NCBI GenBank assembly: GCA_023253175.1
Contig: JALRHH010000001.1
Span: 300,020 to 364,019, forward strand
DNA: 64,000 nucleotides
Direction: 5' to 3'
Origin: Candidatus Saccharimonadia bacterium
GTDB taxonomy: Bacteria > Patescibacteriota > Saccharimonadia > Saccharimonadales > JALRHH01
Below are positions 24,873 to 39,742 of this stretch, in pieces. The translations under genes and the position numbers were made by a program. Position 1 is the first letter of the stretch. The number at the start of each line of letters is the position of its first letter. The notes under the pieces are model-generated. The model did not search any database. It saw only the letters and a program-made list of their open reading frames with translations, and was not told the DNA's origin.

Positions 24873-24954
24873 AGGGTAAAGCTGAAGCCGGCTGGCCAAA
24901 GCTAGTCTGTCACTAGGGACAGATGTGATTCAACCAACCGGCGACTTGGACAGC

Positions 24955-25536: not shown

Positions 25537-25608
25537 GATGACTTCCTTCCTTGGGCATTGTATACCCGGTTGCAGCGCCGCGGAGTTGCGGTGCTGATGA
25601 GAAGAGAA

Positions 25609-26757: not shown

Positions 26758-26970
26758 CGCTCACTCCTTGGATTGGTTGGTTGAATTCTTAACGAGCTCC
26801 TCAAGACTTTGATGTTCTCTCTGTCGAAAAGCCCTATTATTGTATCATAAAAAGTATCCTATACAACTGTTTTGTTAATATAGCCAAATATTGACTTTGT
26901 ATGTTTTTATGAATATAATCGCCCCAGTCAACAAGCGTTGATGCACCTCGACAGATTGGAAGTGAATACC

Positions 26971-27738: not shown

Positions 27739-27864
27739 TCCTCCGGCATCCCGCCAACCACACAACTTCATACCATCTGTCGAAGGGCTGCATACTGACT
27801 TTTACGCTTCACGCGTTCAAAAAAGATCAGTATGCAGCCCAACGACACACCCTTTATGCATATC

Positions 27865-27899
27865 AAAAACACCCGCGTAAGGTTTGCGGGTGTTTTTTT
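27865..27899. terminator. bidirectional rho-independent terminator
   Basis: AAAAACACCCGC-GTAAGGTTT-GCGGGTGTTTTT between the convergent vWA and TerD-like genes. Confidence 0.6.
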
Positions 27900-28031
27900 A
27901 TTATCACAATATATCGTATCCAAAAATTGCGTAAACGGCCCACCTGGTTCCGAGAAGAAAATCTCCTCAAGGTTCCAGGTGGGCCGCTTATGCGACTAGC
28001 TATGAAATTATAGGTGCAAGCAGCAGGAGAA

Positions 28032-28667: not shown

Positions 28668-28978
28668 GGGGAGTCCTTCCTAAAAATACTAGTCGCTGAT
28701 CCGAACCCATTTGGGGACGGTATAAAGCGATAAATTCTAAATTGTTAATGTGCGTAGTTTCGTCGTTTACGACTCTTCAGTGTGGCTTACATCCACAGAC
28801 TATGCGGGGGTATCATGATTGAAGGCTGCGAATTAACGACAGCGATCGCACATGCACCCCCTCGGGATTAATGGCACCCGTGTGGCCAGTATGTTCACGT
28901 GTCCAAGTGGACACGGAAGAACCTCTACATACATGAGGGTGATGGTGCTCGCTCCAAGGAACGAGTCATCTGGTTCAA

Positions 28979-30262
28979 TCAGCCAGCGGAAGGACCCGCG
29001 GGCAGCGCCAGGATCTGACGGGACGAGCCGACGATGCTGTTGACGACCTGCTCGTTGTAGTGAGCGCTGGAGCCATCCAGGATGAGCTTGGACTGACCCA
29101 TGGTGGCGTCCAGCTCAGCACGCTTGCGCGAACCTTCCTCGACCTCGGTGAGGATGTTCTCGGCCATCTGAACGAGCGAGTCCGTCACCGCAGTGATGGT
29201 CTCCGGCAGCAGCGTGGGCGTCTGCACCGCACGCATGATCTGACCTGCCGCCTGAGCCGAGTTGGCCGCCACCTGCTGCAGCATGTCGTTGGTCGCGCTG
29301 GAGACCGCCTCGTTGGCCTTGGCAGCCTCGAGCGACTCCGCCATCATCCGCCACTGGACGATCGCCAGCTTCATGGTGGGGATGGTGAGCCCGACAGCCT
29401 CGTTGAGCTTCTCGGCCATACCAACGTTCAGGACACGCATCATGCGCACCTGCGGCGACGTAGCCCAGGCGACCCACAGCCGGCCCTTGTACTCACCGAT
29501 CTTCACGTCCATCTGGAGGATCAGGTCGGCGTAGCGCTGCTTGAGCTCGGCGTTCTTGTTGCCGGTGGTCGGGTCATCCGGAGGGATGGTGGCCACCTGC
29601 TGCCGCGCCTGCTCGGCGATGCACTCCATGACGGCGATCGCAGAGATCAGCTGGAAGATCGCAACCTCGTTCTCGCCGTAGAGCTGATCGAGGTACGCGA
29701 TGTTCCGCATGGCCTGCATCTTGTGCTGGTTCAGGTCCTTGAGGATCTTCTCCAGCTGGGTGTCGACGGACTGCATGTCGACGAGCATCGCCTGGACGTA
29801 GTTGCGGCCCTTGCGGAACCACTTCTTGACGAAGCTGCTCTCCCACTCGTCGTACGACTTCTTGCCCTCGGGGGTGTTGAGGTCGTACCTGCCCTTGAGG
29901 GACTTCGAGGTGAGGGTGAGCTCGCGCATGATGTCCCTGACGAACCCGGTGTCGTTGGCCGGCAGCTCACGCATGAGGCGGTCGATGAGACCGTTGACCC
30001 CTTGGAGCGCCGACTGCCCGTGGTTCATGAGAACCTGGGTGTTGTTCAGCATCTCCGGCAAGAGCTTGGCGGCCTCGGCCTGGACCTTGGCGAGCTCCGA
30101 CGGTGGGATCATGTCCTTACAGACGACACCACTGCGGGACTCGGGGGTCTCGCTGACGGTCGCCAGTCCAGACGCGATGGGCTTCTCCGGCTGCGGGGCA
30201 ACCTCCAGGGGAGGGGCCTCCGTGGGGGCGCCGGGGACTTCGAACTGCAGTGGGGTGGTCAT
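28979..30262 (-). CDS. telA: TelA/KlaA toxic-anion-resistance family protein
   Basis: Long helical protein with LKGRYD, VDTQLEKILKDLNQHK, LDQLYGENE and IPTMKLAIVQWRM, which is the TelA pattern. AAGGAGG RBS. Confidence 0.85.
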   Translation of the reverse strand: MTTPLQFEVPGAPTEAPPLEVAPQPEKPIASGLATVSETPESRSGVVCKDMIPPSELAKVQAEAAKLLPEMLNNTQVLMNHGQSALQGVNGLIDRLMRELPANDTGFVRDIMRELTLTSKSLKGRYDLNTPEGKKSYDEWESSFVKKWFRKGRNYVQAMLVDMQSVDTQLEKILKDLNQHKMQAMRNIAYLDQLYGENEVAIFQLISAIAVMECIAEQARQQVATIPPDDPTTGNKNAELKQRYADLILQMDVKIGEYKGRLWVAWATSPQVRMMRVLNVGMAEKLNEAVGLTIPTMKLAIVQWRMMAESLEAAKANEAVSSATNDMLQQVAANSAQAAGQIMRAVQTPTLLPETITAVTDSLVQMAENILTEVEEGSRKRAELDATMGQSKLILDGSSAHYNEQVVNSIVGSSRQILALPAGPSAG

Positions 30263-30296
30263 CGACCAGCCTCCTTTTCCTTGGTTGGGATGTAGC

Positions 30297-30743
30297 TCAG
30301 CTGAACCGCTGCGCTGACAGAATCTTGGTGTCGACTCCGAAGTTGGTCATGCTCTGGGTGCCACTCGGCGTTGCCTTGCTCAGTACTCGAGCCGCGAAAC
30401 CATCCACGGCGTCAAAGCCCTCCTGCAAGTGCTCGTCACGACTCGGGTAACCAAAGTCGTTCTGAATGATCACGTACTGCTCGAGTACGCGTACCACCGC
30501 CTTGAGATTCTCCTGGAACTGCATGATGTCACTGTCAGAGGGCTTACCGTCTGGGCTGTTACGCACCAAAAACGGCTCGCCGTTCTGAGCGATCAACGTC
30601 AACAGGACCTTGAGCCTCGGGGCGGTGATCTGGATCCGAGTCTGTCCGATGTCGTCGAGCAGAGCACGTACTCTGCCGAGCGAATACTCGGGCTCGGTCT
30701 TCGGGACAGACTGGCTTGACTGATTGTTCTTGAACCAACCCAT
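30297..30743 (-). CDS. hypothetical protein (148 aa), immediately upstream of and co-oriented with telA
   Basis: Start trimmed to MGWFKNNQ, which follows a perfect AAGGAGG. Ends 35 nt before the telA start. Confidence 0.55.
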   Translation of the reverse strand: MGWFKNNQSSQSVPKTEPEYSLGRVRALLDDIGQTRIQITAPRLKVLLTLIAQNGEPFLVRNSPDGKPSDSDIMQFQENLKAVVRVLEQYVIIQNDFGYPSRDEHLQEGFDAVDGFAARVLSKATPSGTQSMTNFGVDTKILSAQRFS

Positions 30744-30994
30744 ATCGCTACCTCCTTTCAATCTGGTGGCAGTGTTGTAACGACGGTTTTGGGACATGAA
30801 AAGAACGAGATTGAAGTAAGAAGAATATATCATTTTTATACTTATAAGTCAATGAAGTTGCCATATGGTCAACTACTTATATTTACATACAACACTTTTC
30901 AGATATAGACTAGTGCCATCATGTCTATTTACAGAGAATAACAAAACAGGTAGAATTACTTTTGTTATCTTTCTCTCAAGAGAGTCACCACTAT

Positions 30995-31069
30995 TCCGAG
31001 GTGGCGCAGCGGTAGCGCAGTTGACTGTTAATCAATTGGTCGCGGGTTCGAATCCCGCCCTCGGAGCCA
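30995..31069 (+). tRNA. tRNA-Asn (anticodon GTT), CCA encoded
   Basis: Manual cloverleaf: acceptor TCCGAGG/CCTCGGA, D arm GCGC-AGCGGTA-GCGC, anticodon arm GTTGA-CTGTTAA-TCAAT, T arm GCGGG-TTCGAAT-CCCGC, discriminator G, then CCA. Confidence 0.95.
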
Positions 31070-31116
31070 AGCATAAGCACTTTGCGAAAGCAGAGTGTTT
31101 TTGTTTTGGTATACTG
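31045..31116 (+). repeat. array repeat R0 (authentic tRNA 3' end plus hairpin module)
   Basis: GGTTCGAATCCCGCCCTCGGAGCCAAGCATAAGCACTTTGCGAAAGCAGAGTGTTTTTGTTTTGGTATACTGCA. Confidence 0.8.
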
Positions 31117-31121
31117 CATTT

Positions 31122-31712
31122 ATGACAGAACAGTATCTTCCAGAGCTTACTGAACCAGTAAGTCTTCACGGTATTGCTGGTTTAGAAAATATTCCAGTTA
31201 GAGCAGGCATAGAGTTACGACCTCTGATGGTATCTGATGCTCAGCGAATATTAGAGATTCTAGACACTGATCCAACTATTCGTGAGCGTGTTTCTGTGGC
31301 TTCAAAAATGCATTCACCTGAAGATGTTGCCGAGCAGGTTGAGACTTACCAGAATGACGAACATCTTATCCGTTATGCAATAGTTCAGGATAATTCTCCT
31401 ATTGGACTTGTATCATTCTGGCGTGACGTCGATAATTCTTTTGATGCTCCTGATGCTCCTGACGATTATGGTTTTGGCTACTTTCTCGACCCAGCCAATC
31501 GTGGAAGTGGCATAGTAACTGATGCAGTAAAAAGTATTATGGATCGTGCTATTGAAGTAATGCACGTAAATCAATTTATTGCATATTGTGAAGACAATAA
31601 TCCTGGCAGTATCGCAGTACTAACTAAAGTCGGTTTTCATCCGACAGATACTGTTTTAGAAGAGCAGACAACTGGCTGGGTTGAGCGTAAGTATGTTCGT
31701 GAAATTCTGTAA
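31122..31712 (+). CDS. GNAT-family N-acetyltransferase (cassette 1)
   Basis: RGSGIVTDAVKSIMDRAIE (acetyl-CoA loop-like) and NPGSIAVLTKVGFHP. Start trimmed to ATG 31122 so that it lies outside the repeat. Confidence 0.75.
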   Translation: MTEQYLPELTEPVSLHGIAGLENIPVRAGIELRPLMVSDAQRILEILDTDPTIRERVSVASKMHSPEDVAEQVETYQNDEHLIRYAIVQDNSPIGLVSFWRDVDNSFDAPDAPDDYGFGYFLDPANRGSGIVTDAVKSIMDRAIEVMHVNQFIAYCEDNNPGSIAVLTKVGFHPTDTVLEEQTTGWVERKYVREIL

Positions 31713-31727
31713 ACTAGATATCATTCT

Positions 31728-31795
31728 TAGTTCGAATTTCATCCACTAATGGGAGCCAAACTAAGAAGTCCACATTTTGTGGGCTTTTTAGTTTG
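31728..31795 (+). repeat. array repeat R1a (variant outer stem)
   Basis: TAGTTCGAATTTCATCCACTAATGGGAGCCAAACTAAGAAGTCCACATTTTGTGGGCTTTTTAGTTTG. The outer stem is CAAACTAA/TTAGTTTG. Confidence 0.75.
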
Positions 31796-31898
31796 ATTCG
31801 TGGCGAGAGTTGAACCCGATAGTCCGAAGGACCGGGTTCGATAAGCAAAGTCACGCGCAGATGCTTGCATCGAGCATGGCTGCAGGTTATATAGTATA
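31796..31898. other. ORF-less cassette content A (conserved non-coding element)
   Basis: GGCGAGAGTTGAACCCGATAGTCCGAAGGACC resembles GAGCGAGACTTGAATCCGAGACCGATTCGAAGGATC at 33533-33570. Function unknown. Confidence 0.3.
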
Positions 31899-31956
31899 AT
31901 CCTGCCCTCAGAGCACTTTGTGAGAGCAGAGGTTTTTGTCTTGGTTGTGCTTGCAA
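31899..31956 (+). repeat. array repeat R1b (second close copy of the tRNA-Asn 3' end)
   Basis: TAATCCTGCCCTCAGAGCACTTTGTGAGAGCAGAGGTTTTTGTCTTGGTTGTGCTTGCAA, compared with the tRNA sequence AATCCCGCCCTCGGAGCCA..GCACTTTGCGAAAGCAGAGTG. Confidence 0.7.
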
Positions 31957-31996
31957 ATACTTTATGCTGGTCTAAAATTAAATCAAGGAGATAGCT

Positions 31997-32470
31997 ATGT
32001 TGTACGGAGAGAAGCTAGAGATTAGAGAACCATTGTTAGTAGCCCGCCTAAATGTTCTAGATAGTCCATCAGTTCAGAGAAGGGTTCGTAGGGCAACACG
32101 ACATGTACTTATGCACGTGGTTGAAAACCCTAACACACAATATGCAATAACTTGTGAACCAAGGGCGATTAGCACTAAGATTCAAACGCTTGTACTGGGA
32201 CAATATAATACTTCAGCCGAATTTGAAGCATTACCAGAAGGTAATAATTTCTTCTACAGGAAAACATCTGAAGATGGAGTACTTTTCAACCCTGAATGGA
32301 CTGGTAGCCCAGACGGGCTGTACGCCCCACATGCTATGAACTATGTTGATCAGCTTATTGCCAATGGTGCGCGTGTAATGAGTGCACTAAATATACCTAG
32401 CACGCAAGAAATACGTGCCTCAGGTCCTCAACCAAGCTACCCTAAACCAGTTGGTCCTGGGGGGGCATAG
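31997..32470 (+). CDS. hypothetical protein (157 aa, cassette 3)
   Basis: AAGGAG RBS at 31985-31990. The TAG stop is the first triplet of repeat R2. Confidence 0.5.
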   Translation: MLYGEKLEIREPLLVARLNVLDSPSVQRRVRRATRHVLMHVVENPNTQYAITCEPRAISTKIQTLVLGQYNTSAEFEALPEGNNFFYRKTSEDGVLFNPEWTGSPDGLYAPHAMNYVDQLIANGARVMSALNIPSTQEIRASGPQPSYPKPVGPGGA

Positions 32471-32550
32471 CCTGAACCTCGTCTACTAGGGAGAGCCATA
32501 AGCATTTTGACCTCTGTTTCGGCAGAGGTTTTTGTTTTGGTTATGCTTGC
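32468..32550 (+). repeat. array repeat R2
   Basis: TAGCCTGAACCTCGTCTACTAGGGAGAGCCATAAGCATTTTGACCTCTGTTTCGGCAGAGGTTTTTGTTTTGGTTATGCTTGC. Confidence 0.8.
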
Positions 32551-32585
32551 TTATTACTTAGCTTTGCAAGAAGATATAATCTCAT

Positions 32586-32945
32586 ATGCGTGAAAGAATA
32601 GAAATCATCCAAGTTGGCGAAGATAGACAAGCCCCAATTGACCAGTTTCTTGGCTATCTAGAGAATGGTTTATTCGCCACTCCCGAAAGTGGACAATGGC
32701 GTGAACACGATGAGTTGTTTCACATTCCAAGAATCAATACACTTTCAGTAGATGAGGTACAGTTTGTTATGGATGCCGCACAGCTTGCGCGTCGACTTCT
32801 ACATGAAGGCAGGAAGATTCCAGCTGTGTACGCTGCAGAAAGTATTGATCGCTTTCTGACAGACGTGGTTTCTTCGCAAATCTTTGAACGTCAGGAACTT
32901 GAAAAAAAGATGATCCAATACGGCGTGCAGGAGCGATTGTTTTAG
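32586..32945 (+). CDS. hypothetical protein (119 aa, cassette 4)
   Basis: ORF between R2 and R3. TATAAT at 32575-32580 lies only 5 nt from the ATG, so the transcript may be leaderless. Confidence 0.5.
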   Translation: MRERIEIIQVGEDRQAPIDQFLGYLENGLFATPESGQWREHDELFHIPRINTLSVDEVQFVMDAAQLARRLLHEGRKIPAVYAAESIDRFLTDVVSSQIFERQELEKKMIQYGVQERLF

Positions 32946-32981
32946 TTAATACGCTACTGCATAGGAGGTGGTTATTCTTTA

Positions 32982-33063
32982 CAGTTCGACTTGTTTCACT
33001 AATAGTGAGCCAAGCATAAGCAGTTTGCGGAAGCAGAGTGTTTTTTGTTTGGTTATGCTTGCA
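32982..33063 (+). repeat. array repeat R3
   Basis: CAGTTCGACTTGTTTCACTAATAGTGAGCCAAGCATAAGCAGTTTGCGGAAGCAGAGTGTTTTTTGTTTGGTTATGCTTGCA. Confidence 0.8.
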
Positions 33064-33107
33064 AGTCACACTAAGCTAAAAGATAATAATGGCCAAGGAG
33101 AGAACAC

Positions 33108-33464
33108 ATGCATTTTATACAGGGAGAACCAACTCAGATTACTTTTGATAATTCTGACGAGCTGCAAGCATTAGGATGGGCATGCTCAGATATGAGAAGG
33201 GCAAATCCTGACGATGAGCAAACAGTGTCAGCATATGGTATTGCCTTGCGTGGTACAGAAGTCCGACACAACCAGTCAGACAATAAGGATTTTCCGCTCG
33301 TAGGTGAAGAGGCTGATGTCGTTCTTTCAGTATTACGACAGTGGGTTGAACTAGGACCTCCAGCTAAAGAAGGCCAAGTTACTGATGCCGCAAGAGCAAA
33401 AAGCTACAAAACTGCTCAAAGTATCGTAACTCAAGTTACAGAACTTACTCAAGCAGAACGCTAG
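33108..33464 (+). CDS. hypothetical protein (118 aa, cassette 5)
   Basis: AAGGAG RBS. Stop codon is the TAG of TAGTTCGAA in R4a. Confidence 0.5.
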   Translation: MHFIQGEPTQITFDNSDELQALGWACSDMRRANPDDEQTVSAYGIALRGTEVRHNQSDNKDFPLVGEEADVVLSVLRQWVELGPPAKEGQVTDAARAKSYKTAQSIVTQVTELTQAER

Positions 33465-33530
33465 TTCGAATTTCGTCCACTAGTGGGGAGTCAAATAAAA
33501 TAACTCTCGAAAGAGGGTGTTTTTATTTGG
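33462..33530 (+). repeat. array repeat R4a (variant outer stem)
   Basis: TAGTTCGAATTTCGTCCACTAGTGGGGAGTCAAATAAAATAACTCTCGAAAGAGGGTGTTTTTATTTGG. The outer stem is CAAATAAAA/TTTTATTTG. Confidence 0.75.
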
Positions 33531-33636
33531 ATTTGAGCGAGACTTGAATCCGAGACCGATTCGAAGGATCAAGGTCACGATGTTCGGTCTGCAAAGGCTC
33601 TCACAGGAATTTATTGCAAAAAAACTTGCAGGTATA
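33531..33636. other. ORF-less cassette content B (conserved non-coding element)
   Basis: Related to element A. Contains an internal 7-bp stem, AGACCGA..TCGGTCT. Function unknown. Confidence 0.3.
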
Positions 33637-33697
33637 AACTCTCGTCCCAGCAAGATAAGCATAAGCACGCTACGAAAAGATTTCTGCTTATGCTTGC
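33637..33697 (+). repeat. array repeat R4b
   Basis: AACTCTCGTCCCAGCAAGATAAGCATAAGCACGCTACGAAAAGATTTCTGCTTATGCTTGCAA. Confidence 0.65.
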
Positions 33698-33727
33698 AAT
33701 ATAAATGTAAAGGAAGATACTAAAGCC

Positions 33728-34636
33728 ATGAAAACCATTGAATCCCGAATTCCAGCTGGTCCACCTGAGTTACCCGAGATAGCAGGCGAAACTATTGAAA
33801 ACATTCTTGAGACACATAACATTGCGGGGGTGCTCAAAGAACACGGCTGCGACCCATCCCTGGCGGTAGAAACGGCTACAAATTATGCGCAAATAGAGGT
33901 CGCGGAAAACTATTACTACCCGCTTGTAGGTAGGCTGATTCAGTATTTAGCCGATATTCCTCCGGCAATGGTGACGCACAGCGACCAAATAGGTGGCATG
34001 AAATTTCGGACGCAGGCAACATGGGGATTTTATACTATCGACAGACATCACCCCACTGGACCTAAAGAGACAAAATTGACTCTTGGAATACCAAAAGATG
34101 TAGATCCGAGCTCGGAAATGATTGAAGCGATTCAATCCATTAATAATGATAACCCTATTAGACATAGACTTCTTGGACTAGCTCCGGAGCGAAAGCGCGT
34201 GTTTGGACGTGAGACAGTGGATCAAGTTCGGCTAAAGCAGACACTTGGTAAGCTATTCACAGAACACGTAGCGGTCGTAGATGCTTATGAATTTACTCAA
34301 GATTTGGCTCTCCCTTATCAACTAGGCGCACCAAAGAGTAAGAACGAGCACATTGCTCAGTACCTCCAGCCTCATTATCCACGACATTCTTTTAAAGAGT
34401 ATTGGAGACCCGAGACGCTGGCTCAAGACCTTGAGTCAAGAGACAAAGATACAGATGGTACAACTGGCACTACACCAACAGAAAAGCACCAATGGATGCT
34501 AAATCTAAATCGTCGCGCAACTATTCAATACTTACTTCAGAGGGCAGTAGAGGTAGAGCGTTATGGTCAAATTATTGAAGCTGGCACACCCTTAAGTGAC
34601 CGAGATATTGCAGTACAACGTACAAGCCCAGCTTAA
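33728..34636 (+). CDS. hypothetical protein (302 aa, cassette 7)
   Basis: ORF following R4b. No motif recognised. Confidence 0.55.
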   Translation: MKTIESRIPAGPPELPEIAGETIENILETHNIAGVLKEHGCDPSLAVETATNYAQIEVAENYYYPLVGRLIQYLADIPPAMVTHSDQIGGMKFRTQATWGFYTIDRHHPTGPKETKLTLGIPKDVDPSSEMIEAIQSINNDNPIRHRLLGLAPERKRVFGRETVDQVRLKQTLGKLFTEHVAVVDAYEFTQDLALPYQLGAPKSKNEHIAQYLQPHYPRHSFKEYWRPETLAQDLESRDKDTDGTTGTTPTEKHQWMLNLNRRATIQYLLQRAVEVERYGQIIEAGTPLSDRDIAVQRTSPA

Positions 34637-34756
34637 CTAAGATCTTTGAATTATCAACAGATAGAAGCATGGTCTTTACTCATCCCTTGAATGATACACA
34701 AGGTGATGGAAAGCGCAATTAGATCATGGAGATAGTTACCTCAGGTGAAAAATCAA

Positions 34757-34829
34757 AGATCATGCTTGCCAGAACGCGAAGATATACGATCGTATTTCGT
34801 GAAGGCAGATTGTTTTGGTTATGCTTGCC
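34757..34829 (+). repeat. array repeat R5 (degenerate, lacks the TTCGAA segment)
   Basis: AGATCATGCTTGCCAGAACGCGAAGATATACGATCGTATTTCGTGAAGGCAGATTGTTTTGGTTATGCTTGCC. Confidence 0.5.
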
Positions 34830-34862
34830 TTATAGCATTTCAGGGCATACCATACATTTGAA

Positions 34863-35138
34863 ATGCCAGAAATACGCTTAAGTGATTTTGAAGAAGAATT
34901 AATTCCACCCATATTGCCCCCATGCATTGAAGACCAATGTCCAAATATTACTAATCCTTCGGGACGTGATGTATTAGTATGTCTTTCAGGTATCCATGTA
35001 CTCCGCCTCTTAGGCAAAACTAGTATTTTCGAGAGTACGCCATGTGGTTCTGAGGCACTTGCAACCAATGAAGACATTAAGGATGGCGAACAGCCTAGCT
35101 CGGGTAAACTGTGGCAAGATACTAAATATTATTACTAG
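34863..35138 (+). CDS. hypothetical protein (91 aa, cassette 8)
   Basis: ORF. Stop codon is the TAG of TAGTTCGAA in R6. Confidence 0.4.
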   Translation: MPEIRLSDFEEELIPPILPPCIEDQCPNITNPSGRDVLVCLSGIHVLRLLGKTSIFESTPCGSEALATNEDIKDGEQPSSGKLWQDTKYYY

Positions 35139-35205
35139 TTCGAAAGTTGTTCACCGGGTAGAGCTAAGCACAAGCACTTTGCGAGAGCAGAGTGTTTTTG
35201 TTTGT
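35136..35205 (+). repeat. array repeat R6
   Basis: TAGTTCGAAAGTTGTTCACCGGGTAGAGCTAAGCACAAGCACTTTGCGAGAGCAGAGTGTTTTTGTTTGT. Confidence 0.75.
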
Positions 35206-35236
35206 AAATCATTTCTTTGTCTGCCAGACTGGGACT

Positions 35237-35662
35237 ATGTCTAGTATTGAAGAATGTCCGTTTTGTAATTTAGGTGATCGAATTCTACTTGAAAATGAGC
35301 ATGCTAATCTATTCTTAAGTAACCCACGAAAGGTTAAGGGTCAGGTATTGATTACCCCTAAAAGACACATTGAACAATCGTGGGAAATGTCTGACGAAGA
35401 GCTTCTGGCCGTATTCAGTCTCATTAAAGTTGCCCAGCACAAATTGATTGCCGAATTTGGCGGTGGAGTAGACGTAAAGCAAAACTATCGTCCGTTCATG
35501 AAGCAAGGTCGTGTAAAAGTCGACCATACTCATTACCATGTATATCCACGAACAAGCGAGGATGAGCTCTACCAACAGGTAGAGCGGCATGAAACACCAA
35601 TGTTTATTAATCTTTCGGAAGATGAAGAAGTAAAAATCTCTGGTCTTTTCCGCCAAGATTAG
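35237..35662 (+). CDS. HIT-family (histidine triad) nucleotide hydrolase/transferase (cassette 9)
   Basis: Histidine triad VDHTHYHVYPR and an N-terminal CPFC zinc-like motif. Start trimmed to ATG 35237. Stop is the TAG of R7. Confidence 0.8.
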   Translation: MSSIEECPFCNLGDRILLENEHANLFLSNPRKVKGQVLITPKRHIEQSWEMSDEELLAVFSLIKVAQHKLIAEFGGGVDVKQNYRPFMKQGRVKVDHTHYHVYPRTSEDELYQQVERHETPMFINLSEDEEVKISGLFRQD

Positions 35663-35740
35663 TTCGAGCTTCAGACACCGCGGGAGCCATAAGCATTTTG
35701 ACCTCTGTTTATTCAAAGGTTTTATTTTGGTTATGCTTGC
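35660..35740 (+). repeat. array repeat R7
   Basis: TAGTTCGAGCTTCAGACACCGCGGGAGCCATAAGCATTTTGACCTCTGTTTATTCAAAGGTTTTATTTTGGTTATGCTTGC. Confidence 0.8.
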
Positions 35741-35787
35741 AAATCATTTTTCAACATTAGAAAATAAGTAAAAGTAAGGAGTAACTT

Positions 35788-36930
35788 ATGACCTACGAGC
35801 CAGTGGAAGGAGTTGATTATTTAATTGACCTCTATGCGATTGCCAATGTTCCTCATGAAGTTAAGCAAGATGAAATAAATCTTGCTATAAATGCCCGACT
35901 AAAGGAATACCATCCCGATAGACTCCAGGGACTTGCACCCGAATTTCGAGAAAAAGGTGAACGAATGGCCCGACTTCTCAACCGTGCAAAGACAATTCTA
36001 TTAGATCCTGAGTCTCGCTCACAATACGATGAAGTATTGTCTGAATGGGACGGTCCTCTTAGCAAAGACGGTAGACCCGTTGTGGTCATTGGGCGCCTTG
36101 CACGGGCAGAAGCTGCTAGTAAGTCTCCGGAAGAAGTAGAGGCGGGAATTGCCTCCCAAATTCCACAGATTGAAAGTATGACAGGATATTCTGCCTCTCA
36201 GCTTTCTTTTCTTGAGAAAATGGTACAACAAGCAGGCGATGACGCTCCTGATGATCTCCTCCAAGCATATGAAGCAGCCTTACTTAGTCAAGACAGGGCA
36301 CTTGCGATAGAAGAAGCCAATCGTGGTGACCTTCTTGGCATACCAAGTATGGAAGGTACTCGGTATATTGCTACGCTAGACTATGCTGAGGATAAAGCTC
36401 ACGCAATTGAGACAGCTCAAAAGGCGTATAAGGAAGAATTTATTACCGCAGCCATTGGAGGCGTCAGCACTCGACTTGCATTACTAGCAGGAGAGAGCAC
36501 ACCCGAAACTAGCACCACTCTTGTTTCCCCAGAGCCTATTGAATTACCAACCTACTTTGACGAACAAGCGGCAAAGATTAAGGAGATTGCCGAAAAGCGA
36601 CAAGTTATTGTAGAAAAACGGCTTGCAAACCTTAAGCCTACGTATCCAGAAATAGAGCTTCAGGATGAAGCGCAGCAGACACTAGCATTGCGATTTGGGT
36701 CTGTGTGGCTAGGGCTCATTGTCGATACAGAGAAACAAAGTGTAAACAGTGTTGACATACCATCAGATATTAAGCAGCTGCTGTCAGAAGAAGACTATGT
36801 TACGGTAATTCAGAACGGCTTTAACGTCATGACTATTGAACCACTCGACCAATTAGACTTTGAAGAGCTGATTAACGCAGCGGTCGAGTATCATGTTAAA
36901 AGGTACGGGCTTCTTCTAGAAGAAAATTAG
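35788..36930 (+). CDS. J-domain (DnaJ N-terminal domain) protein, 380 aa (cassette 10)
   Basis: DLYAIANVPHEVKQDEINLAINARLKEYHPDR with the HPD tripeptide. The rest is unrecognised. Stop is the TAG of R8. Confidence 0.75.
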   Translation: MTYEPVEGVDYLIDLYAIANVPHEVKQDEINLAINARLKEYHPDRLQGLAPEFREKGERMARLLNRAKTILLDPESRSQYDEVLSEWDGPLSKDGRPVVVIGRLARAEAASKSPEEVEAGIASQIPQIESMTGYSASQLSFLEKMVQQAGDDAPDDLLQAYEAALLSQDRALAIEEANRGDLLGIPSMEGTRYIATLDYAEDKAHAIETAQKAYKEEFITAAIGGVSTRLALLAGESTPETSTTLVSPEPIELPTYFDEQAAKIKEIAEKRQVIVEKRLANLKPTYPEIELQDEAQQTLALRFGSVWLGLIVDTEKQSVNSVDIPSDIKQLLSEEDYVTVIQNGFNVMTIEPLDQLDFEELINAAVEYHVKRYGLLLEEN

Positions 36931-36990
36931 TTCAGGCCTCATCCACCGGGAGAGCTATAAGCACTTTTACCTCTGTAGTGGAGGTCTTTT
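36928..36990 (+). repeat. array repeat R8 (right half truncated)
   Basis: TAGTTCAGGCCTCATCCACCGGGAGAGCTATAAGCACTTTTACCTCTGTAGTGGAGGTCTTTT. Confidence 0.65.
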
Positions 36991-37004
36991 GATACACTTA
37001 GTGA

Positions 37005-37634
37005 ATGGTACTAACTGAAAATAGCTCAAACTATATCAATAAAGAAGCTGTCGGCTACTTAGTAAATTCCGGCCTAAGCCCAGAGAACCAAAGTAAGGTA
37101 GCTGATATTCACGAAAAGCTCATTTCAAAATTTGGCAATAATATTTGGTGTCCGCCACCAGAGACACTGCATATTACGCTCATGGACTGGCTTGCGCCAC
37201 TCGTTGACTACGAAAGAGATAAAGATGTCCTGTTTGAAGAAATACGACCAACATATAGCAGATCTCTAGAGGAAGCCATCGCTGGTATCGGTAGCATTAC
37301 AGTTAAGTTTGATGTACTGCACGTAAGTCCAGGTGCTGTCTTTAGCGTCGGCCAGGACGGAGGACAACTTAACCATATTAGAGAGTCGTTTTTAAATAAA
37401 GTAGAAGAGCTTTTAGACGGTACAAAACAACCTCCAAATATAGCCCATTTTTCTGTAGCACGATTTATGGCTGAAGTTGATATTGAAGATGTCGAAGCAG
37501 TGCTTGAAGAATGTTCAATTGATATTATCCAAGAAATAAATTCATTTCGTCTCATTCGTGAGACAAAGCTTCCGATGCAACAGTATGAAGTAATTCAGGA
37601 GTATATTCTTGAAGACAAATCAACGCATTACTAG
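37005..37634 (+). CDS. 2H-phosphoesterase superfamily protein (LigT / cyclic phosphodiesterase-like) (cassette 11)
   Basis: Two HxT/S motifs at the expected spacing: LHITLM and AHFSVAR. Stop is the TAG of R9. Confidence 0.6.
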   Translation: MVLTENSSNYINKEAVGYLVNSGLSPENQSKVADIHEKLISKFGNNIWCPPPETLHITLMDWLAPLVDYERDKDVLFEEIRPTYSRSLEEAIAGIGSITVKFDVLHVSPGAVFSVGQDGGQLNHIRESFLNKVEELLDGTKQPPNIAHFSVARFMAEVDIEDVEAVLEECSIDIIQEINSFRLIRETKLPMQQYEVIQEYILEDKSTHY

Positions 37635-37700
37635 TTCGAAGCTCGTTCACTAGAGAGCCAAGCATAATCATTACTAAAGAGAAAAGTGATTTTGTTTTAC
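37632..37700 (+). repeat. array repeat R9
   Basis: TAGTTCGAAGCTCGTTCACTAGAGAGCCAAGCATAATCATTACTAAAGAGAAAAGTGATTTTGTTTTAC. Confidence 0.7.
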
Positions 37701-37731
37701 AAAATTTTAATTTATGATATTATAAATTTCT

Positions 37732-38151
37732 ATGAGTCCGGAGAGAACAGAAAGTTGGGATTGGTCACAACTTGATCCAATGACTAAAAGTGTCGTAGCG
37801 GCTTTTTCGTGGCGGATTGGCAATGACGAAGGCTGTTTATCAGACCAGGCATTTATTGGCTCAACCACAGAAGCATTCGAAAGTATGACCACTGAAGACA
37901 TTGTAAGAACCGTTCAATGTACCGGTCGAACAGGATTACGTAATATGATCATTGGTAGATTGTCAGGAGCGGACGGAGAATCAGTACGGCGAATGACTGA
38001 GCAAATCGGTGAATTAGCTGGAGGTAGTGATACTTCAAGATTATTAGCCAAGTTTGCGTGCCAACAACTAACTGGTAAATTAAACAGTAGCTATGATGCG
38101 ATTCCTACACTAAGTGTTCTTAGTGAGATGGCTACTGCTCGAATTAGTTAA
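37732..38151 (+). CDS. hypothetical protein (139 aa, cassette 12)
   Basis: ORF between R9 and R10. Confidence 0.45.
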   Translation: MSPERTESWDWSQLDPMTKSVVAAFSWRIGNDEGCLSDQAFIGSTTEAFESMTTEDIVRTVQCTGRTGLRNMIIGRLSGADGESVRRMTEQIGELAGGSDTSRLLAKFACQQLTGKLNSSYDAIPTLSVLSEMATARIS

Positions 38152-38170
38152 AGTTGCGCCTTTTTACTTT

Positions 38171-38246
38171 ACTTCGATAATCGTCCAGGATAGGGAACCA
38201 AACATAAACACTCTGCGAAAGCAGAGTGTTTATGTTTGTTATACTT
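38171..38246 (+). repeat. array repeat R10 (continuous perfect 18-bp hairpin)
   Basis: ACTTCGATAATCGTCCAGGATAGGGAACCAAACATAAACACTCTGCGAAAGCAGAGTGTTTATGTTTGTTATAC. Confidence 0.75.
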
Positions 38247-38252
38247 AAAGAC

Positions 38253-38402
38253 ATGACTAAGAAAAAATTAATTCTTTGTATGTTAATTACCCTAACAGTA
38301 ACATTATTGGCTGCTGCGGTTTTGTACAGTAAAGAGAAAAAGAAATGCGAAACAAGTGCAACTTATTTCAGTACTCATCCTAATTTCTGCCCAGCCTCCT
38401 AA
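38253..38402 (+). CDS. 49-aa membrane peptide (cassette 13), below the ORF-track size cut-off
   Basis: My translation is MTKKKLILCMLITLTVTLLAAAVLYSKEKKKCETSATYFSTHPNFCPAS. It occupies the whole R10-R11 interval. Confidence 0.35.
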   Translation: MTKKKLILCMLITLTVTLLAAAVLYSKEKKKCETSATYFSTHPNFCPAS

Positions 38403-38405
38403 TTA

Positions 38406-38488
38406 AAGTTCTAATCTCGTCCATTAGACGGAGCCATAAGCATTTTGACCTCTGTTTCGGCAGAGGTTTTTGTTTTGGTTATGCTTGC
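38406..38488 (+). repeat. array repeat R11
   Basis: AAGTTCTAATCTCGTCCATTAGACGGAGCCATAAGCATTTTGACCTCTGTTTCGGCAGAGGTTTTTGTTTTGGTTATGCTTGC. The last 58 nt are identical to R2. Confidence 0.8.
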
Positions 38489-38539
38489 ATGCTATTAATC
38501 ACCCTGCCATACTAAACTACGATATAAGAGACAAATTCC

Positions 38540-38848
38540 ATGAGTTTATATGATTTGCAGAGAGACTTAGCGGACCATGATTCACGTAATTGGCTACATG
38601 AGCAGGGCTTTGAAACAGACAAGCATAATTTTTTGCATGTTGCTAAAACCGCAGGCAAAATTGCAACTCATTTAGAAGCCATTGATGATAAGAAAGAAGA
38701 TCCTAGCGCGCAACTAGACAGCATGGTTGTTGCAGATCTTGCTATCGAGGCCATGCGCTTTGCAAATAATAGTGGACGGAGTCTACAAGAACTTATCGAA
38801 GCGCGCATGGAGGAACTTCGAGAACGAGCTGCTCAGGCACAGAGTTAG
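38540..38848 (+). CDS. hypothetical protein, possibly an all-alpha MazG-like NTP pyrophosphohydrolase fold (102 aa, cassette 14)
   Basis: The pattern FLHVAKTAGKIATHLEAIDD..VVADLAIEAMRFAN..SLQELIEARMEEL loosely resembles MazG-type helices. Stop is the TAG of R12. Confidence 0.35.
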   Translation: MSLYDLQRDLADHDSRNWLHEQGFETDKHNFLHVAKTAGKIATHLEAIDDKKEDPSAQLDSMVVADLAIEAMRFANNSGRSLQELIEARMEELRERAAQAQS

Positions 38849-38916
38849 TTCGAATTTCGTCCACTAATGGGAGTCAAGCACAAGCACCTTGCTGAAAGGC
38901 AAGGTGCTTTTTTGTT
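38846..38916 (+). repeat. array repeat R12 (terminal; also serves as a bidirectional terminator)
   Basis: TAGTTCGAATTTCGTCCACTAATGGGAGTCAAGCACAAGCACCTTGCTGAAAGGCAAGGTGCTTTTTTGTTATGA, with a perfect 9-bp stem GCACCTTGC/GCAAGGTGC. Confidence 0.75.
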
Positions 38917-39742
38917 ATGATTCTAGCTCAAGGTTGATTAATCCATGTATGTGGCTGCTCAGCTTTGCCACACGCGCAGACCTGTCTCCATGCAGCAGTT
39001 CTACTTTATTAGGTGATAGATGAGCTCGATATAATGCTGCAATAGTATCAGCTACCTGGCTACGAAATCCGTCATCGACTACTCGCTTGCCATCATCTTC
39101 AAAGGCAACTTCTGTATGGTCAGTTAAAAGAATTTTGTCATAATGATCAGCGGCGAAAGCGTAAGCTTGCTCGGCTATAGAAATGGGGAAAGATGGCGTA
39201 GCAAGATCACTAATACTGGCTAAATTGGCCTGTGCATGGTTTTCTTTTGGTAGGCGTAACATCGCATAGCCAAATCCAGATAAAACACCACGATCGGTCA
39301 ATACCACACCTATAGCTTTTTCTCGATCGGGCTGTAGTTTACGCGCCATTGCTAACGCAGACATGCCCGCTCCTTGTGTGCGAGACATCGTTCGCAAGGT
39401 GATACTTGCTTGATCATCTTTGTTATAGCCTGTCGTAAGCATATTGCGCTGAGGATATAATGCATCTGTCTGTCGAGCTATCTCACCTACAATTACAATC
39501 GGCACGGTAATATTGTCAACTATTTCAGTAACACAAACTGTTGGGTAGTCATAATGATGGGTGCCACCAAAATCATCAATATCACCGTCAACCAGTAAAT
39601 CTTTGTCTTGTATATAATCTCTGATAACAGTGGTCTTGCCGGCGGAATGGGCTCCATCAACAGCAATCATTAAAGCATGCTCTTCAGAAGCTCCGATTGG
39701 CTTTTGCGCCAGGGATAAGTTTTCTGCCTCAAAATGCAACAT
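38915..39742 (-). CDS. P-loop NTPase (AAA/NadR-kinase-like ATPase)
   Basis: Walker A DGAHSAGKTT and Walker B-like ILLTDH. Convergent with the end of the cassette array. Confidence 0.55.
   Translation of the reverse strand: MLHFEAENLSLAQKPIGASEEHALMIAVDGAHSAGKTTVIRDYIQDKDLLVDGDIDDFGGTHHYDYPTVCVTEIVDNITVPIVIVGEIARQTDALYPQRNMLTTGYNKDDQASITLRTMSRTQGAGMSALAMARKLQPDREKAIGVVLTDRGVLSGFGYAMLRLPKENHAQANLASISDLATPSFPISIAEQAYAFAADHYDKILLTDHTEVAFEDDGKRVVDDGFRSQVADTIAALYRAHLSPNKVELLHGDRSARVAKLSSHIHGLINLELES

Follow-up and report, generated by a model that had tools for sequence, protein, structure and literature searches.

Integron cassettes are promoterless, and the sites of sedentary chromosomal integrons are homogeneous within a genome. 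Correia-type elements, for their part, supply promoters and terminators. Prochlorococcus tycheposon islands have been described as gathering degenerate elements and partial tRNAs. Here, we analyze a 64-kb stretch of DNA (the window) on a 644-kb contig from an uncultured Candidatus Saccharibacteria genome, in which a tRNA-Asn gene is followed by 12 small co-oriented cassettes, mostly of one gene each (Table 1). The sequence makes it likely that the locus as a whole is explained by junctions that combine a large serine recombinase (LSR) scar, a terminator, and a promoter, and that separate 12 once-mobile cassettes lined up after tRNA-Asn.

The repeats between the cassettes are a locus-specific array rather than a dispersed element. 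The motif AGTTC-N18-24-GAGYYA has 10 matches in the 64 kb (0.76 expected), eight of which lie on the + strand between 31729 and 38876, and a profile search confines the repeat copies to 31046-38923. We compared this array with approximately 35 related Saccharibacteria loci. The same architecture, headed by tRNA-Asn, is found in seven other loci of the first set, with smpB conserved upstream, and the cassette content is wholly different between loci.

Each repeat is best read as two cassette ends. Its left part (TTCGAA..GAGCCA) and its right part (terminator plus promoter) assort independently, which indicates that a repeat is the junction of the two: the left part would close the upstream cassette at its 3' end, and the right part would open the downstream cassette at its 5' end. 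The preliminary description had instead proposed a portable terminator-plus-promoter module. Taken literally, this self-contained unit is contradicted by its halves recombining independently and by copies that are restricted to the array. A MITE- or REP-like module, spread between pre-existing genes with no role in gene acquisition, would have a precedent in Correia-type elements, and the terminator and promoter features are real. We nevertheless regard it as highly improbable, as all copies lie on one strand, the repeats have no terminal inverted repeats or target duplications, the genes between them change completely from genome to genome beside a conserved upstream flank (smpB and tRNA), and the left half is common to LSR island ends.

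Table 1. Features of the tRNA-Asn cassette array (positions are those of the window).
Feature	Position	Strand	Description
tRNA-Asn(GTT)	30995..31069	+	Array anchor (ARAGORN; Rfam tRNA, 73 bits); own promoter TTTACA-17-TAGAAT (30928-30956); T-loop GGTTCGAAT and 3' end GGAGCCA (core 31064-31069), an attB-like left half-site
Junction 0	31064..31115	+	Core GAGCCA; type-A terminator-like hairpin 31075-31100 with T-tract, z = -6.7; putative extended -10 TGgTATACT (31110-31115) ending 6 nt before ATG at 31122
Cassette 1	31122..31712	+	GNAT acetyltransferase (Pfam Acetyltransf_3, 7e-19); leaderless-type start
Junction 1	31728..31978	+	P box 31728-31752; core 31753-31758; hairpin 31759-31793, z = -7.9; structured non-coding insert 31794-31910; second core-like GAGCAC 31911-31916 with weak hairpin, z = 0.04; putative -35 TTGCAA 31951-31956, -10 TAAAAT 31973-31978, spacer 16, then AAGGAG RBS
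Cassette 2	31997..32470	+	157 aa, no family match
Junction 2	32468..32580	+	Diverged P box 32468-32492; core 32493-32498; type-B hairpin 32509-32530 with T-tract, z = -5.3; GGTTATGCTTGCTT 32539-32552; TATAAT 32575-32580 ending 5 nt before ATG
Cassette 3	32586..32945	+	119 aa, no family match
Junction 3	32982..33087	+	P box 32982-33006; core 33007-33012; type-A hairpin 33018-33043, z = -5.95; putative -35 TTGCAA 33059-33064, -10 GATAAT 33082-33087, spacer 17, then AAGGAG RBS
Cassette 4	33108..33464	+	118 aa, no family match
Junction 4	33462..33721	+	P box 33462-33487, providing stop codon TAG; core GAGTCA 33488-33493; A/T-flanked hairpin 33493-33528, z = -6.55; structured insert 33529-33656; putative -35 TTGCAA 33694-33699, -10 GATACT 33716-33721 ending 6 nt before ATG
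Cassette 5	33728..34636	+	302-aa ORFan, no Pfam family; a search of 5.8 billion protein clusters gives a single match, to a fragment of this same protein
Junction 5	34637..34853	+	Decayed, lacking any clear P box or core; hairpin weak; GGTTATGCTTGCCT retained; TTGCCT 34825-34830 and TACCAT 34848-34853, spacer 17
Cassette 6	34863..35138	+	91 aa, no family match
Junction 6	35136..35207	+	P box 35136-35160, providing stop codon TAG; core GAGCTA 35161-35166; type-A hairpin 35172-35197 with T-tract, z = -4.0; no convincing promoter before ATG at 35237
Cassette 7	35237..35662	+	HIT-family protein (Pfam HIT, 3e-9; PADLOC 'HIT family' model, 3e-6)
Junction 7	35660..35765	+	P box 35660-35683; core 35684-35689; decayed type-B hairpin 35700-35721, z = -1.3; putative -35 TTGCAA 35737-35742, -10 GAAAAT 35760-35765, spacer 17, then AAGGAG RBS
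Cassette 8	35788..36930	+	380 aa; N-terminal DnaJ (J) domain (Pfam DnaJ, 2e-8)
Junction 8	36928..36998	+	P box 36928-36951; core GAGCTA 36952-36957; short hairpin 36969-36985, z = -0.1; putative TGaTACACT, -10 at 36993-36998 ending 6 nt before ATG at 37005
Cassette 9	37005..37634	+	209 aa; weak 2'-5' RNA ligase superfamily match (Pfam 2_5_RNA_ligase2, 4e-4, under the family cut-off)
Junction 9	37632..37723	+	P box 37632-37654; core 37655-37660; weak hairpin, z = -2.0; putative TTTACA 37696-37701, 16 nt, (TG)TATTAT 37718-37723 ending 8 nt before ATG
Cassette 10	37732..38151	+	139 aa, no family match
Junction 10	38170..38245	+	P box 38170-38194; core GAACCA 38195-38200; perfect 18-bp hairpin 38199-38238, z = -11.4; putative TGtTATACT, -10 at 38240-38245 ending 7 nt before ATG at 38253
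Cassette 11	38253..38402	+	Small hydrophobic protein, ~49 aa
Junction 11	38406..38513	+	P box 38406-38430; core 38431-38436; type-B hairpin 38447-38468, z = -5.3; putative -35 TTGCAT 38485-38490, -10 CATACT 38508-38513, spacer 17
Cassette 12	38540..38848	+	102 aa, no family match
Junction 12	38846..38917	+	Distal array end; P box 38846-38870; core GAGTCA 38871-38876; hairpin 38882-38909 with T-tract, z = -4.3, perhaps what originally flanked the tRNA downstream
AAA_28-like gene	38915-39742	-	Convergent, after junction 12

The left part most probably represents a site of DNA recombination. It would comprise a P box, (T/A)AGTTCGAA plus approximately 16 nt, followed by the core GAGCCA. Acting at the DNA level, P box and core would be an attP P arm joined to the last tRNA bases, a scar left by an LSR family whose members insert DNA into tRNA genes at their 3' ends. 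The scar would belong to the upstream cassette, often providing its stop codon. Among the related loci, an LSR gene (492 aa; Resolvase, Recombinase, and Zn_ribbon_recom) is oriented convergently to a tRNA gene and overlaps its 3' end, the tRNA being tRNA-Asn in L034, L048, L049, L053, and L055-57 and tRNA-Trp in L050; an LSR remnant follows tRNA-Asn in L023. The distal end of all these islands is the same P box adjoining the core, such as TAGTTCGAAGTGCGTCCACTAGGGG joined to GAGCCA in L048 and AAGTTCGAAGTTCATCCATTAGGAG joined to CTGCCA, the tRNA-Trp end, in L050. Beyond these islands, cassette arrays with the same boxes carry on. In serine integrases, the zinc-ribbon-domain motif is shifted 5 bp inward in attB relative to attP (PMC3783163). 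An identical shift distinguishes the boxes from the tRNA: the distance of TTCGAA to the core is 11 nt in tRNA-Asn and tRNA-Trp and 16 nt, 5 bp more, in P boxes (segment lengths of 24 nt versus a mode of 29 nt).

This segment had alternatively been proposed to be a tRNA-like punctuation mark. In that case RNase P or Z, or else the CCA-adding enzyme, would recognize it on a long transcript as a processing site. It does retain the tRNA-Asn T-loop heptamer and the GAGCCA 3' end, and it sits directly 3' of stop codons. We reject this reading, which we consider extremely improbable, because the repeats form neither a T-stem (0-4 of five pairs) nor an acceptor stem (5' strand partner no better than chance), whereas scores of 5/5 and 7/7 are reached by genuine tRNAs of these loci. 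ARAGORN and Rfam, even at E <= 5, report a single real tRNA and none of the repeats, and the spacing is 5 nt longer than in a tRNA. In other P-box families, TTATAA, TTCCAA, or TTGCGA replaces TTCGAA with the 16-nt spacing unchanged. Furthermore, the core becomes CTGCCA at tRNA-Trp, which a DNA crossover explains; an RNA signal leaves this change unexplained.

If the junctions are LSR scars, the single genes between them could also be leftovers of internally deleted full-size islands, in which case no small unit would ever have moved. Full LSR islands of 3.5-9 kb do occur at the same site as the arrays, the LSR fragment in L023 persists, and tycheposon islands reportedly accumulate debris likewise. 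We consider such decay unlikely. LSR islands carry a conserved LSR-side arm (CCA followed by ATTTGAATTTT..AAAGCCAT..ATGGCTTTTT), but neither this arm nor LSR debris follows any core in the window, where terminator and promoter come directly after. The stop codon adjoins the P box in seven of 12 cases, which favors compact units, and the regular one-gene spacing seen in more than 20 loci is not expected of random deletions.

Hairpins with T-tracts follow the tRNA and nearly all cassettes. A terminator scan of 30700-39100 finds 19 sites (6.1 +/- 2.7 expected), with the repeat hairpins called on the + strand. Nine of 13 window hairpins have z-scores of -4 to -11, and none of 200 shuffles folds as well; four are weak or decayed (31905, 35684, 36952, and 37655). 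Across 76 copies from approximately 30 loci, mean dG is -14.8 kcal/mol for the + strand RNA versus -10.9 for the complement, the + strand fold being more stable in 61 copies and less so in 13 (Wilcoxon p = 4e-10), and G.U pairs number 177 versus 48. At least six unrelated stem sequences each retain the T-tract. These data support the view that the hairpins are intrinsic-terminator-like and selected on the + strand, in keeping with the rho-independent form first noticed in the inner stem. Each would halt transcription from the tRNA or the preceding cassette, with the promoter of the downstream cassette directly after.

Promoter statistics support a promoter of its own before almost every cassette. 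All four -35/-10 pairs of the preliminary description lie exactly where it placed them, but only two pass the threshold of a generic sigma-70 scan, which finds 16 promoters in the region against 17.2 expected. At chance within the window, the promoter claim thus becomes significant only with comparative data. Right ends of the TTGCAA type have a good -10 at a spacer of 16-18 in 14 of 24 cases, versus about two expected (other spacer windows, mean 1.8; shuffles, 2.6 +/- 1.5, with 0/2000 reaching 14). This bears out the proposed role of TTGCAA as a -35, which would lie in a GGTTATGCTTGCAA block. At junction 2, the distance of the TTGCTT block to the -10 is not that of a -35.

The commoner promoter type differs from the one first described: an extended -10 (TGnTAnnnT) fused to the T-tract. 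A -10 ends 3-10 nt upstream of 44 of 63 cassette ATGs, compared with 17% of control ATGs (p = 7e-20). Distances peak sharply, with 25 ATGs at 6 nt (20 of them with TG) and 11 at 7 nt (eight with TG), over a background of about two per position, so that 36 of the 63 ATGs, 28 with an extended-type TG, come 6-7 nt after the hexamer. This spacing implies leaderless mRNAs. Most cassettes had been said to have an AAGGAG RBS; we find one in three of the 12 (starts 31997, 33108, and 35788), and across all loci only nine of 63 starts are of Shine-Dalgarno type without a leaderless-type -10, most being leaderless-type. With a terminator per spacer and a promoter per cassette, the cassettes look like autonomous transcription units, as previously suggested; strand-biased hairpins and promoter statistics favor this, except for cassette 7, which has no recognizable promoter.

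Such promoters set the cassettes apart from promoterless integron cassettes. Otherwise the layout is integron-like, with single genes in one orientation that each have a site at the 3' end, and P boxes are homogeneous within a genome (L011 and L023/L028), resembling sedentary chromosomal integrons. The array could then reflect an integron-like tyrosine recombinase system, or homologous recombination after natural transformation at the ~80-nt repeats, whose length suffices for RecA-mediated exchange; the LSR association would then be incidental. Either is very unlikely. Tyrosine recombinases are absent from the window, from five LSR islands, and from the top 25 families among 138 related-locus ORFs of at least 140 aa, and RYYYAAC/GTTRRRY core sites are absent. 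The hairpins appear selected as + strand RNA with T-tracts, unlike the folded bottom strands of attC-type sites, and the precise joint of P box and core, with its 5-bp shift, fits LSR logic.

We infer that an LSR made the junctions in the window and that the small cassettes were mobilized in trans. The 64-kb window contains no recombinase of any kind. Neither a strain variant of the tRNA-Asn array nor, among the loci compared, the same cassette in two different contexts was found, so the mobility of the small cassettes stays putative. To our knowledge, attL-type sites are not among the targets of canonical serine integrases. Insertion time after time at one and the same tRNA would thus need relaxed specificity or attB-like right arms, and we found no convincing right half-site motif in the repeats. 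In L012, the array follows tRNA-Gln (end CAGCCA), yet its cores are GAGCCA. Arrays probably grew by serial insertions at the tRNA end, with older cassettes pushed distally. With a probable scar, a terminator, and a promoter in the spacers, the genes each have the look of a cassette that is insulated, expresses itself, and was once mobile.

The array is a hypervariable cassette site at a fixed chromosomal position, and not an oddity of one contig. This view draws on co-oriented arrays, a conserved smpB/tRNA flank and differing cassette content in relatives. The window lies on a 644-kb metagenomic contig (ENA ERZ27267699), which exact repeat matches assign to Candidatus Saccharibacteria. One genome scan and one metagenome scan, both using repeat-derived patterns, yielded 33 related Saccharibacteria loci (given L-numbers here). 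Wherever a locus was of sufficient length to judge, the repeats were contained in co-oriented arrays of small ORFs, headed by tRNA-Asn in seven loci and by tRNA-Gln in one (L012), with smpB conserved 5' of the tRNA. The window array comprises up to 12 units, and array length exceeds 12 kb in the L023/L028 contig. The gene content of the cassettes is wholly different between loci. A search for cassettes common to different arrays, made to fix cassette boundaries, returned zero nucleotide matches; the few between-array matches lie at 30-50% amino-acid identity, too remote to place boundaries. Comparing the window array with the related loci, we did not see the same cassette in two contexts. Exact-protein look-ups with the flanking AAA_28-like gene and cassette 1 gave the same array in every contig, with no presence/absence variants among strains.

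Few of the cassette products resemble characterized proteins. Firm Pfam families were assigned to three of the 12 (GNAT, HIT and J-domain), a fourth product matches the 2'-5' RNA ligase superfamily below threshold, and eight lack a Pfam family. Ten of the proteins were scanned with PADLOC and PHROGs for defence and phage functions, giving no specific match and only a GNAT match and a generic HIT match. The cassette 5 product has no homologue among 5.8 billion protein clusters except its own fragment.

Coordinates of the array, its repeats and associated elements
Feature	Locus	Position	Strand	Remark
tRNA-Asn(GTT)	window	30995-31069		sole tRNA of the window
12 small ORFs (cassettes 1-12)	window	31122 to 38848	+	downstream of tRNA-Asn
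Cassette 5 ORF	window	33728-34636	+	302 aa
Junction 5	window	34637-34862		GGTTATGCTTGCC promoter block
T-tract fused to extended -10	window	31105-31124		TTTTGGTATACT, 6 nt, ATG
-35/-10 pair	window	31951-31956 with 31973-31978		TTGCAA, TAAAAT; spacer 16 nt
-35/-10 pair	window	33059-33064 with 33082-33087		TTGCAA, GATAAT; spacer 17 nt
-35/-10 pair	window	35737-35742 with 35760-35765		TTGCAA, GAAAAT; spacer 17 nt
-35/-10 pair	window	38485-38490 with 38508-38513		TTGCAT, CATACT; spacer 17 nt
Outer stem	window	31069-31078 with 31104-31112		
Outer stem	window	32496-32503 with 32539-32549		
Non-coding insert element	window	31794-31910, 33529-33656		
Non-coding insert element	L011	2598-2735, 3598-3735		
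Non-coding insert element	L019, L023, L028, L034, L037, L039			further copies; partial in L028
smpB	window	19820-20293		
Ter-type block	window	20452-30833	-	
Ter genes proper	window	~22 to 30.8 kb		53-62% G+C vs ~46% in surroundings
Distal island end	L048			TAGTTCGAAGTGCGTCCACTAGGGG abutting GAGCCA
Distal island end	L034			GTTGCGGACACCGTCAATTAGGGG abutting GAGCCA
P box ending the island	L034	11165-11194		oriented coordinates
Distal island end	L050			AAGTTCGAAGTTCATCCATTAGGAG abutting CTGCCA
Last 13 LSR codons and stop	L048	11438-11479		antisense of tRNA 3' 42 nt; also L049, L053, L055, L050
tblastn match of the 13-aa peptide	window	31034-31072		tRNA-Asn antisense
Defence-like cargo	L048	2787-3818		original coordinates
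tRNA-Gln-like copy	L012	5400-5590		just 5' of intact tRNA-Gln

A block of ~10 kb separates smpB from tRNA-Asn in the window, although the two adjoin in related genomes. It is a Ter-type stress cluster encoding two ComF-like PRTases, a HAD hydrolase, TerC/DUF475, TerD and TelA, together with a second, weak TerD-like protein. The Ter genes proper are richer in G+C than their surroundings. This block appears to have been acquired horizontally in its own right, across the tRNA from the array.

Each spacer of the array contains one copy of the repeat. Its parts follow in the order (T/A)AGTTCGAA, ~16 variable nt, the core GAGCCA, a hairpin and a T-tract; GGTTATGCTTGCA is also present in seven copies. 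The pattern AGTTC-N18-24-GAGYYA matches 10 times in 64 kb against 0.76 expected, with eight matches inside the array, all on the + strand. In a profile search of the 64-kb window, no repeat copy was found outside 31046-38923; this confinement, to the + strand, argues against a dispersed MITE/REP-type repeat. We had also to abandon the idea, from the preliminary description, that the repeat is a single portable module, because its left part (the P box, ~25 nt) and its right part assort independently. Among the spacers (junctions 0-12), junctions 1, 4 and 12 have boxes in common, yet their hairpins differ; junctions 2, 7 and 11 have hairpins in common, yet the junction 7 box differs. Left and right halves that belong to different cassettes would fit this independent assortment. 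Junction 5, where the P box, core and most of the hairpin are gone and a promoter block is kept, probably arose by decay, or by a deletion that joined two cassettes.

The inner stem, earlier proposed to be a rho-independent terminator, has that character at the sequence level. Terminator-like sites number 19 against 6.1 expected, an approximately three-fold enrichment, and they take the form of a stem-loop with a T/U-tract directly 3', downstream of the stop codon on the coding strand. Like known intrinsic terminators, they have a GC-rich stem, a loop of 3-8 nt and a U-tract. Nine of the 13 window hairpins fold far better than shuffles (z = -4 to -11), and the other four are weak or decayed. 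Across 76 copies, the 60 nt after GAGCCA have a mean dG of -14.8 kcal/mol as + strand RNA vs -10.9 for the complement; folding favours the + strand in 61 copies and the complement in 13 (p = 4e-10), and G.U pairs number 177 on the + strand vs 48 on the - strand. The T-tract is kept across at least six unrelated stem sequences. Such features, with the fold kept while the sequence varies, point to selection on the transcribed-strand RNA and are those of intrinsic terminators that act on transcripts of the + strand. Two of the hairpin types also occur directly 3' of genuine tRNA-Asn genes, type A in the window and type B (TAAGCATTTTGACCTCTG...) in L018, L024, L026 and L042.

An outer stem surrounds the terminator hairpin. 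The tRNA 3' end or core (AGCCAAGCA) pairs with UGUUUUGGUU or TTATGCTTGC 3' of the T-tract, at the two tabulated positions and at equivalents elsewhere. Thus, the -35 block is partly complementary to the core region.

Two promoter arrangements follow the hairpins. The first had been proposed from four hexamer pairs in which the right end of the repeat supplies the -35, and all four are present exactly as described. Of 24 right ends of the ..TGCTTGCAA type, with TTGCAA as the -35, 14 have a good -10 located 16-18 nt downstream. Counts in other spacer windows average 1.8 and those in shuffles 2.6, and 0 of 2000 shuffles reach 14. The -35 proposal therefore holds and generalises, because 14 of 24 compares with ~2 expected across loci. 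The arrangement is also found in L011, L024 and L028, and by eye in L037; in L012 and L018, the -10 at this spacing is a near miss.

The second arrangement is commoner. At 36 of 63 cassette starts, a -10 hexamer ends 6 nt (25 starts) or 7 nt (11 starts) 5' of the ATG, over a background of ~2 per position, and TGn precedes the -10 in 28 of these 36. In a wider window of 3-10 nt, a -10 is found at 44 of 63 cassette ATGs vs 17% of control ATGs (p = 7e-20). The T-tract runs directly into the TG, as in the tabulated example before cassette 1. We predict leaderless mRNAs from these starts, because the T-tract-fused extended -10 ends 6-7 nt before the ATG; in known leaderless extended -10 promoters, TGnTAnnnT likewise ends 6-7 nt before the ATG, which is the predicted first transcript base. 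Here, the putative terminator and promoter are fused, the T-tract ending in the TG of the extended -10, and they travel with a putative recombination site.

Either promoter type is present for 11 of the 12 window cassettes. The proposal that every cassette is an autonomous transcription unit accordingly has sequence support; cassette 7 has neither promoter type. A generic promoter scan of the region alone gave 16 sites vs 17.2 expected, which is chance level, and passed only two of the four hexamer pairs. Most cassettes had also been said to carry an AAGGAG ribosome-binding site, which in fact precedes just three of the 12 window ORFs.

The P box resembles part of a tRNA, and an alternative reading of the repeat had been a tRNA-like punctuation mark for mRNA processing. 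Its structure argues against this. The repeats form between 0 and 4 of the five T-stem pairs and have no acceptor partner beyond chance, where genuine tRNAs form 5/5 and 7/7. From GTT to CCA, the box measures 29 nt vs 24 nt in the tRNA segment. Other box families have TTATAA, TTCCAA or TTGCGA in place of TTCGAA, and keep the 16-nt spacing and GAGCCA. ARAGORN and Rfam, the latter at gathering and E-value thresholds, gave no tRNA-model match for the boxes, even at E <= 5. An Rfam match to "SpF41 sRNA" was discarded, as it covers only the tRNA and its terminator. We also rejected the boxes as displaced tRNA 3' ends left by a crossover in the T-loop: they are 5 nt longer, have a conserved non-tRNA form across genomes and could not rebuild a functional tRNA.

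The tRNA-like box appears best explained as a serine-recombinase attachment scar. L034 encodes a 493-aa large serine recombinase (LSR; Resolvase, Recombinase and zinc ribbon domains) immediately after tRNA-Asn, convergent with it and overlapping its 3' end. This geometry is repeated in all six further contexts examined, at tRNA-Asn in L048, L049, L053 and L055-57 and at tRNA-Trp in L050. At E <= 1e-20, the LSR family numbers 1399 matches, and contigs of 0.3-0.7 Mb carry many of them. An LSR gene remnant lies 3' of tRNA-Asn in L023, and no recombinase of any kind was found within the 64-kb window. The tRNA-side junction of the LSR islands is conserved, with ..CCA meeting ATTTGAATTTT, then AAAGCCAT and ATGGCTTTTT. 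At the distal end of each island, a cassette-repeat box abuts the core. (G)GAGCCA is common to the tRNA-Asn end and to P-box junctions, and likewise CTGCCA, the 3' end of tRNA-Trp, at that target. Since the box is constant and the core tracks the target tRNA, the box has the character of a joint between P arm and host (attR). Beyond the LSR islands, cassette arrays with the same boxes continue.

The spacing of the box also points to an attachment site. The distance from TTCGAA to the core is 11 nt in tRNA-Asn, as in tRNA-Trp, vs 16 nt in the boxes. Serine integrases have the motif of the zinc-ribbon domain 5 bp nearer the crossover in attB than in attP (PMC3783163). By this rule, the tRNA has attB-type geometry and the box attP-type geometry. 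We infer that TTCGAA is the motif contacted by the recombinase and that the candidate crossover dinucleotide, which is non-palindromic, is GA (CT at tRNA-Trp). For a right half-site with dyad symmetry there are weak by-eye resemblances only, ATTTTGACC in type-B arms and ATTTGAAT in LSR-side arms. A possible second LSR-side arm behind the first P box of L048, known from a short motif match only, was set aside as evidence. In L034, an 18-bp direct repeat (GCCCAGCAGCCGGAGCCA) was dismissed as the island boundary, as it belongs to a non-coding insert element; the island's own end is a P box.

The last 13 codons and the stop of the LSR gene are read from the antisense of the tRNA 3' end. Because these codons lie in the tRNA, the LSR C-terminus would differ between integrated and excised states. 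The same 13-aa peptide has a tblastn match on the tRNA-Asn antisense of the window, where the LSR is absent.

The LSR islands carry restriction-modification systems and other defence-like genes at the same site as the cassettes. The cargo in L048, L034, L049 and L053 includes a DNA methylase with MvaI/BcnI or NgoFVII restriction enzymes. Further island and array cargo in these four loci comprises SMC-like ATPases with DUF2130, a KAP NTPase, SLFN/AlbA_2 and DUF4238, and an RVT_1 reverse transcriptase sits there as a cassette.

Taken together, we consider it probable that the cassettes are autonomous transcription units and that the box between them is a serine-recombinase attachment scar. The array would read tRNA, core, then successive units of P' arm (terminator and promoter), ORF and P box, each unit followed by a further core, with the original downstream flank at the distal end. 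The terminator at a cassette head would serve the tRNA first and then the next cassette to arrive, and the cassette's own promoter would make it independent of context. Two points count against this model: canonical LSRs are not known to reuse attL-type sites, and the L012 array follows tRNA-Gln. A less likely alternative is that the cassettes are what deletions have left of full LSR islands; we disfavour it since each core runs straight into a terminator-promoter head, and LSR-side sequence is never found in that place.

The attachment-scar reading invites comparison with known mobile systems. Each component has precedents: intrinsic terminators, leaderless promoters of the extended -10 type and LSR attachment sites. 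Their arrangement was not found described in a full-text literature search on Saccharibacteria/Patescibacteria cassettes, islands and integrons and on tRNA-targeting LSRs. Large serine integrases of the A118/LI, Bxb1 and phiC31 type have the same domain set, an integrase gene at the extreme island edge adjoining one junction, a short identity core with a non-palindromic candidate dinucleotide (GA or CT here), and a distal motif whose distance from the centre is 5 bp greater in the element site than in that of the host. Unlike them, the system here targets a tRNA gene 3' end, with the T-loop as presumed distal motif, and draws its last 13 LSR codons from tRNA antisense. It also has many junctions with P-type left arms in tandem, which canonical chemistry confined to attP x attB does not predict.

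Two kinds of composite island share some of this organization. In staphylococcal SCC islands, recombinase-less units co-exist with recombinase-bearing ones. Elements enter there, too, at a conserved gene's 3' end through the action of serine recombinases. SCC and pseudo-SCC composite islands at rlmH (orfX) consist of successive tandem elements separated by short direct repeats (PMC9430635, PMC3026799). The units here differ in being mostly single genes of 0.3-1.2 kb vs 5-60 kb in SCC, in their tRNA anchor, and in that each begins with a terminator-promoter head and has a 25-nt P box as its tail. Prochlorococcus tycheposon islands are likewise built by integration at tRNA genes, with newer elements pushing older ones inward and partial att/tRNA repeats and cargo left behind, and a minority use large serine recombinases. 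Tycheposon repeats, however, are partial tRNAs and their elements are multi-gene with replication modules, whereas here the repeat is an attP arm and not a tRNA copy, and single-gene units share a standard terminator-promoter head.

Another parallel is with integron arrays, which also hold co-oriented, mostly single-ORF cassettes of unrelated or unknown function, with a lineage-specific recombination site at the ORF 3' end that sometimes overlaps the stop codon. The repeats are nonetheless not attC sites: they have no RYYYAAC...GTTRRRY cores, and the cassettes carry promoters. No IntI tyrosine recombinase or attI turned up beside the array, among the matches listed, for either the window or its related loci, and none of the defining integron features tested is present. 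Integron cassettes are promoterless and driven by Pc, whereas those here are self-promoted and terminator-insulated; the candidate enzyme is a serine and not a tyrosine recombinase, and the site is of a duplex half-site type and not a folded single strand.

Other elements are associated with the tRNAs and junctions. Some junctions contain a non-coding element of 115-140 nt, invariably preceded by a terminator made up of A-tract, hairpin and T-tract. The element is built from an inverted copy of the 3' third of the local tRNA-Asn, a short hairpin as spacer and this tRNA segment again in direct orientation, whose T-loop is split by a palindromic piece of ~70 nt and whose end is the tRNA's own ..CCCCGGAGCCA. 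Its conserved helices contain U.G pairs, with compensatory changes in 9 of 24 pairs, and it has no Rfam match. Candidate identities are an ORF-less cassette, a pseudo-attB and a small RNA. In L012, a second tRNA-Gln-like copy has its anticodon loop enlarged by an insertion of ~40 nt and its T-loop by one of ~85 nt, and is without an acceptor 3' strand; AATCCCTCCGCCC-AGCC is duplicated after the intact tRNA-Gln. This copy and the duplicated end suggest that, in these genomes, tRNA T-loops are also used by an element of a different kind.

Saccharibacteria have genomes of ~0.6-1 Mb and depend on host bacteria, and the ways in which they gain and vary accessory genes are poorly understood. The arrays offer a hypervariable locus at a fixed site whose cassette genes are almost all of unknown function. 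More tentatively than the attachment-scar reading, we raise the possibility that a serine-recombinase counterpart of the integron exists in Saccharibacteria, and perhaps in further ultra-small bacteria of the candidate phyla radiation (CPR), with single-gene attP cassettes captured at tRNA-Asn. The attP of each cassette would comprise the P box, a core matching the tRNA end and the terminator/promoter arm. A tRNA-targeting LSR on co-resident defence islands would capture cassettes successively at the tRNA-Asn 3' end, using the tRNA T-loop as its distal recognition motif, and each cassette would arrive terminator-insulated and be expressed from its own, mostly leaderless, promoter.

If this is true, these bacteria would stockpile single genes as integrons do, but by a mechanism of their own, a second answer to the same problem. 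A tRNA T-loop would apparently be used as a DNA recognition motif with a 5-bp attP/attB offset, a directly testable prediction. The arrays would also be a source of natural, compact parts, both terminators and leaderless promoters, and of an integrase that is tRNA-specific and has readable att sites; these could become genetic tools for Saccharibacteria, a phylum that has only recently become tractable.
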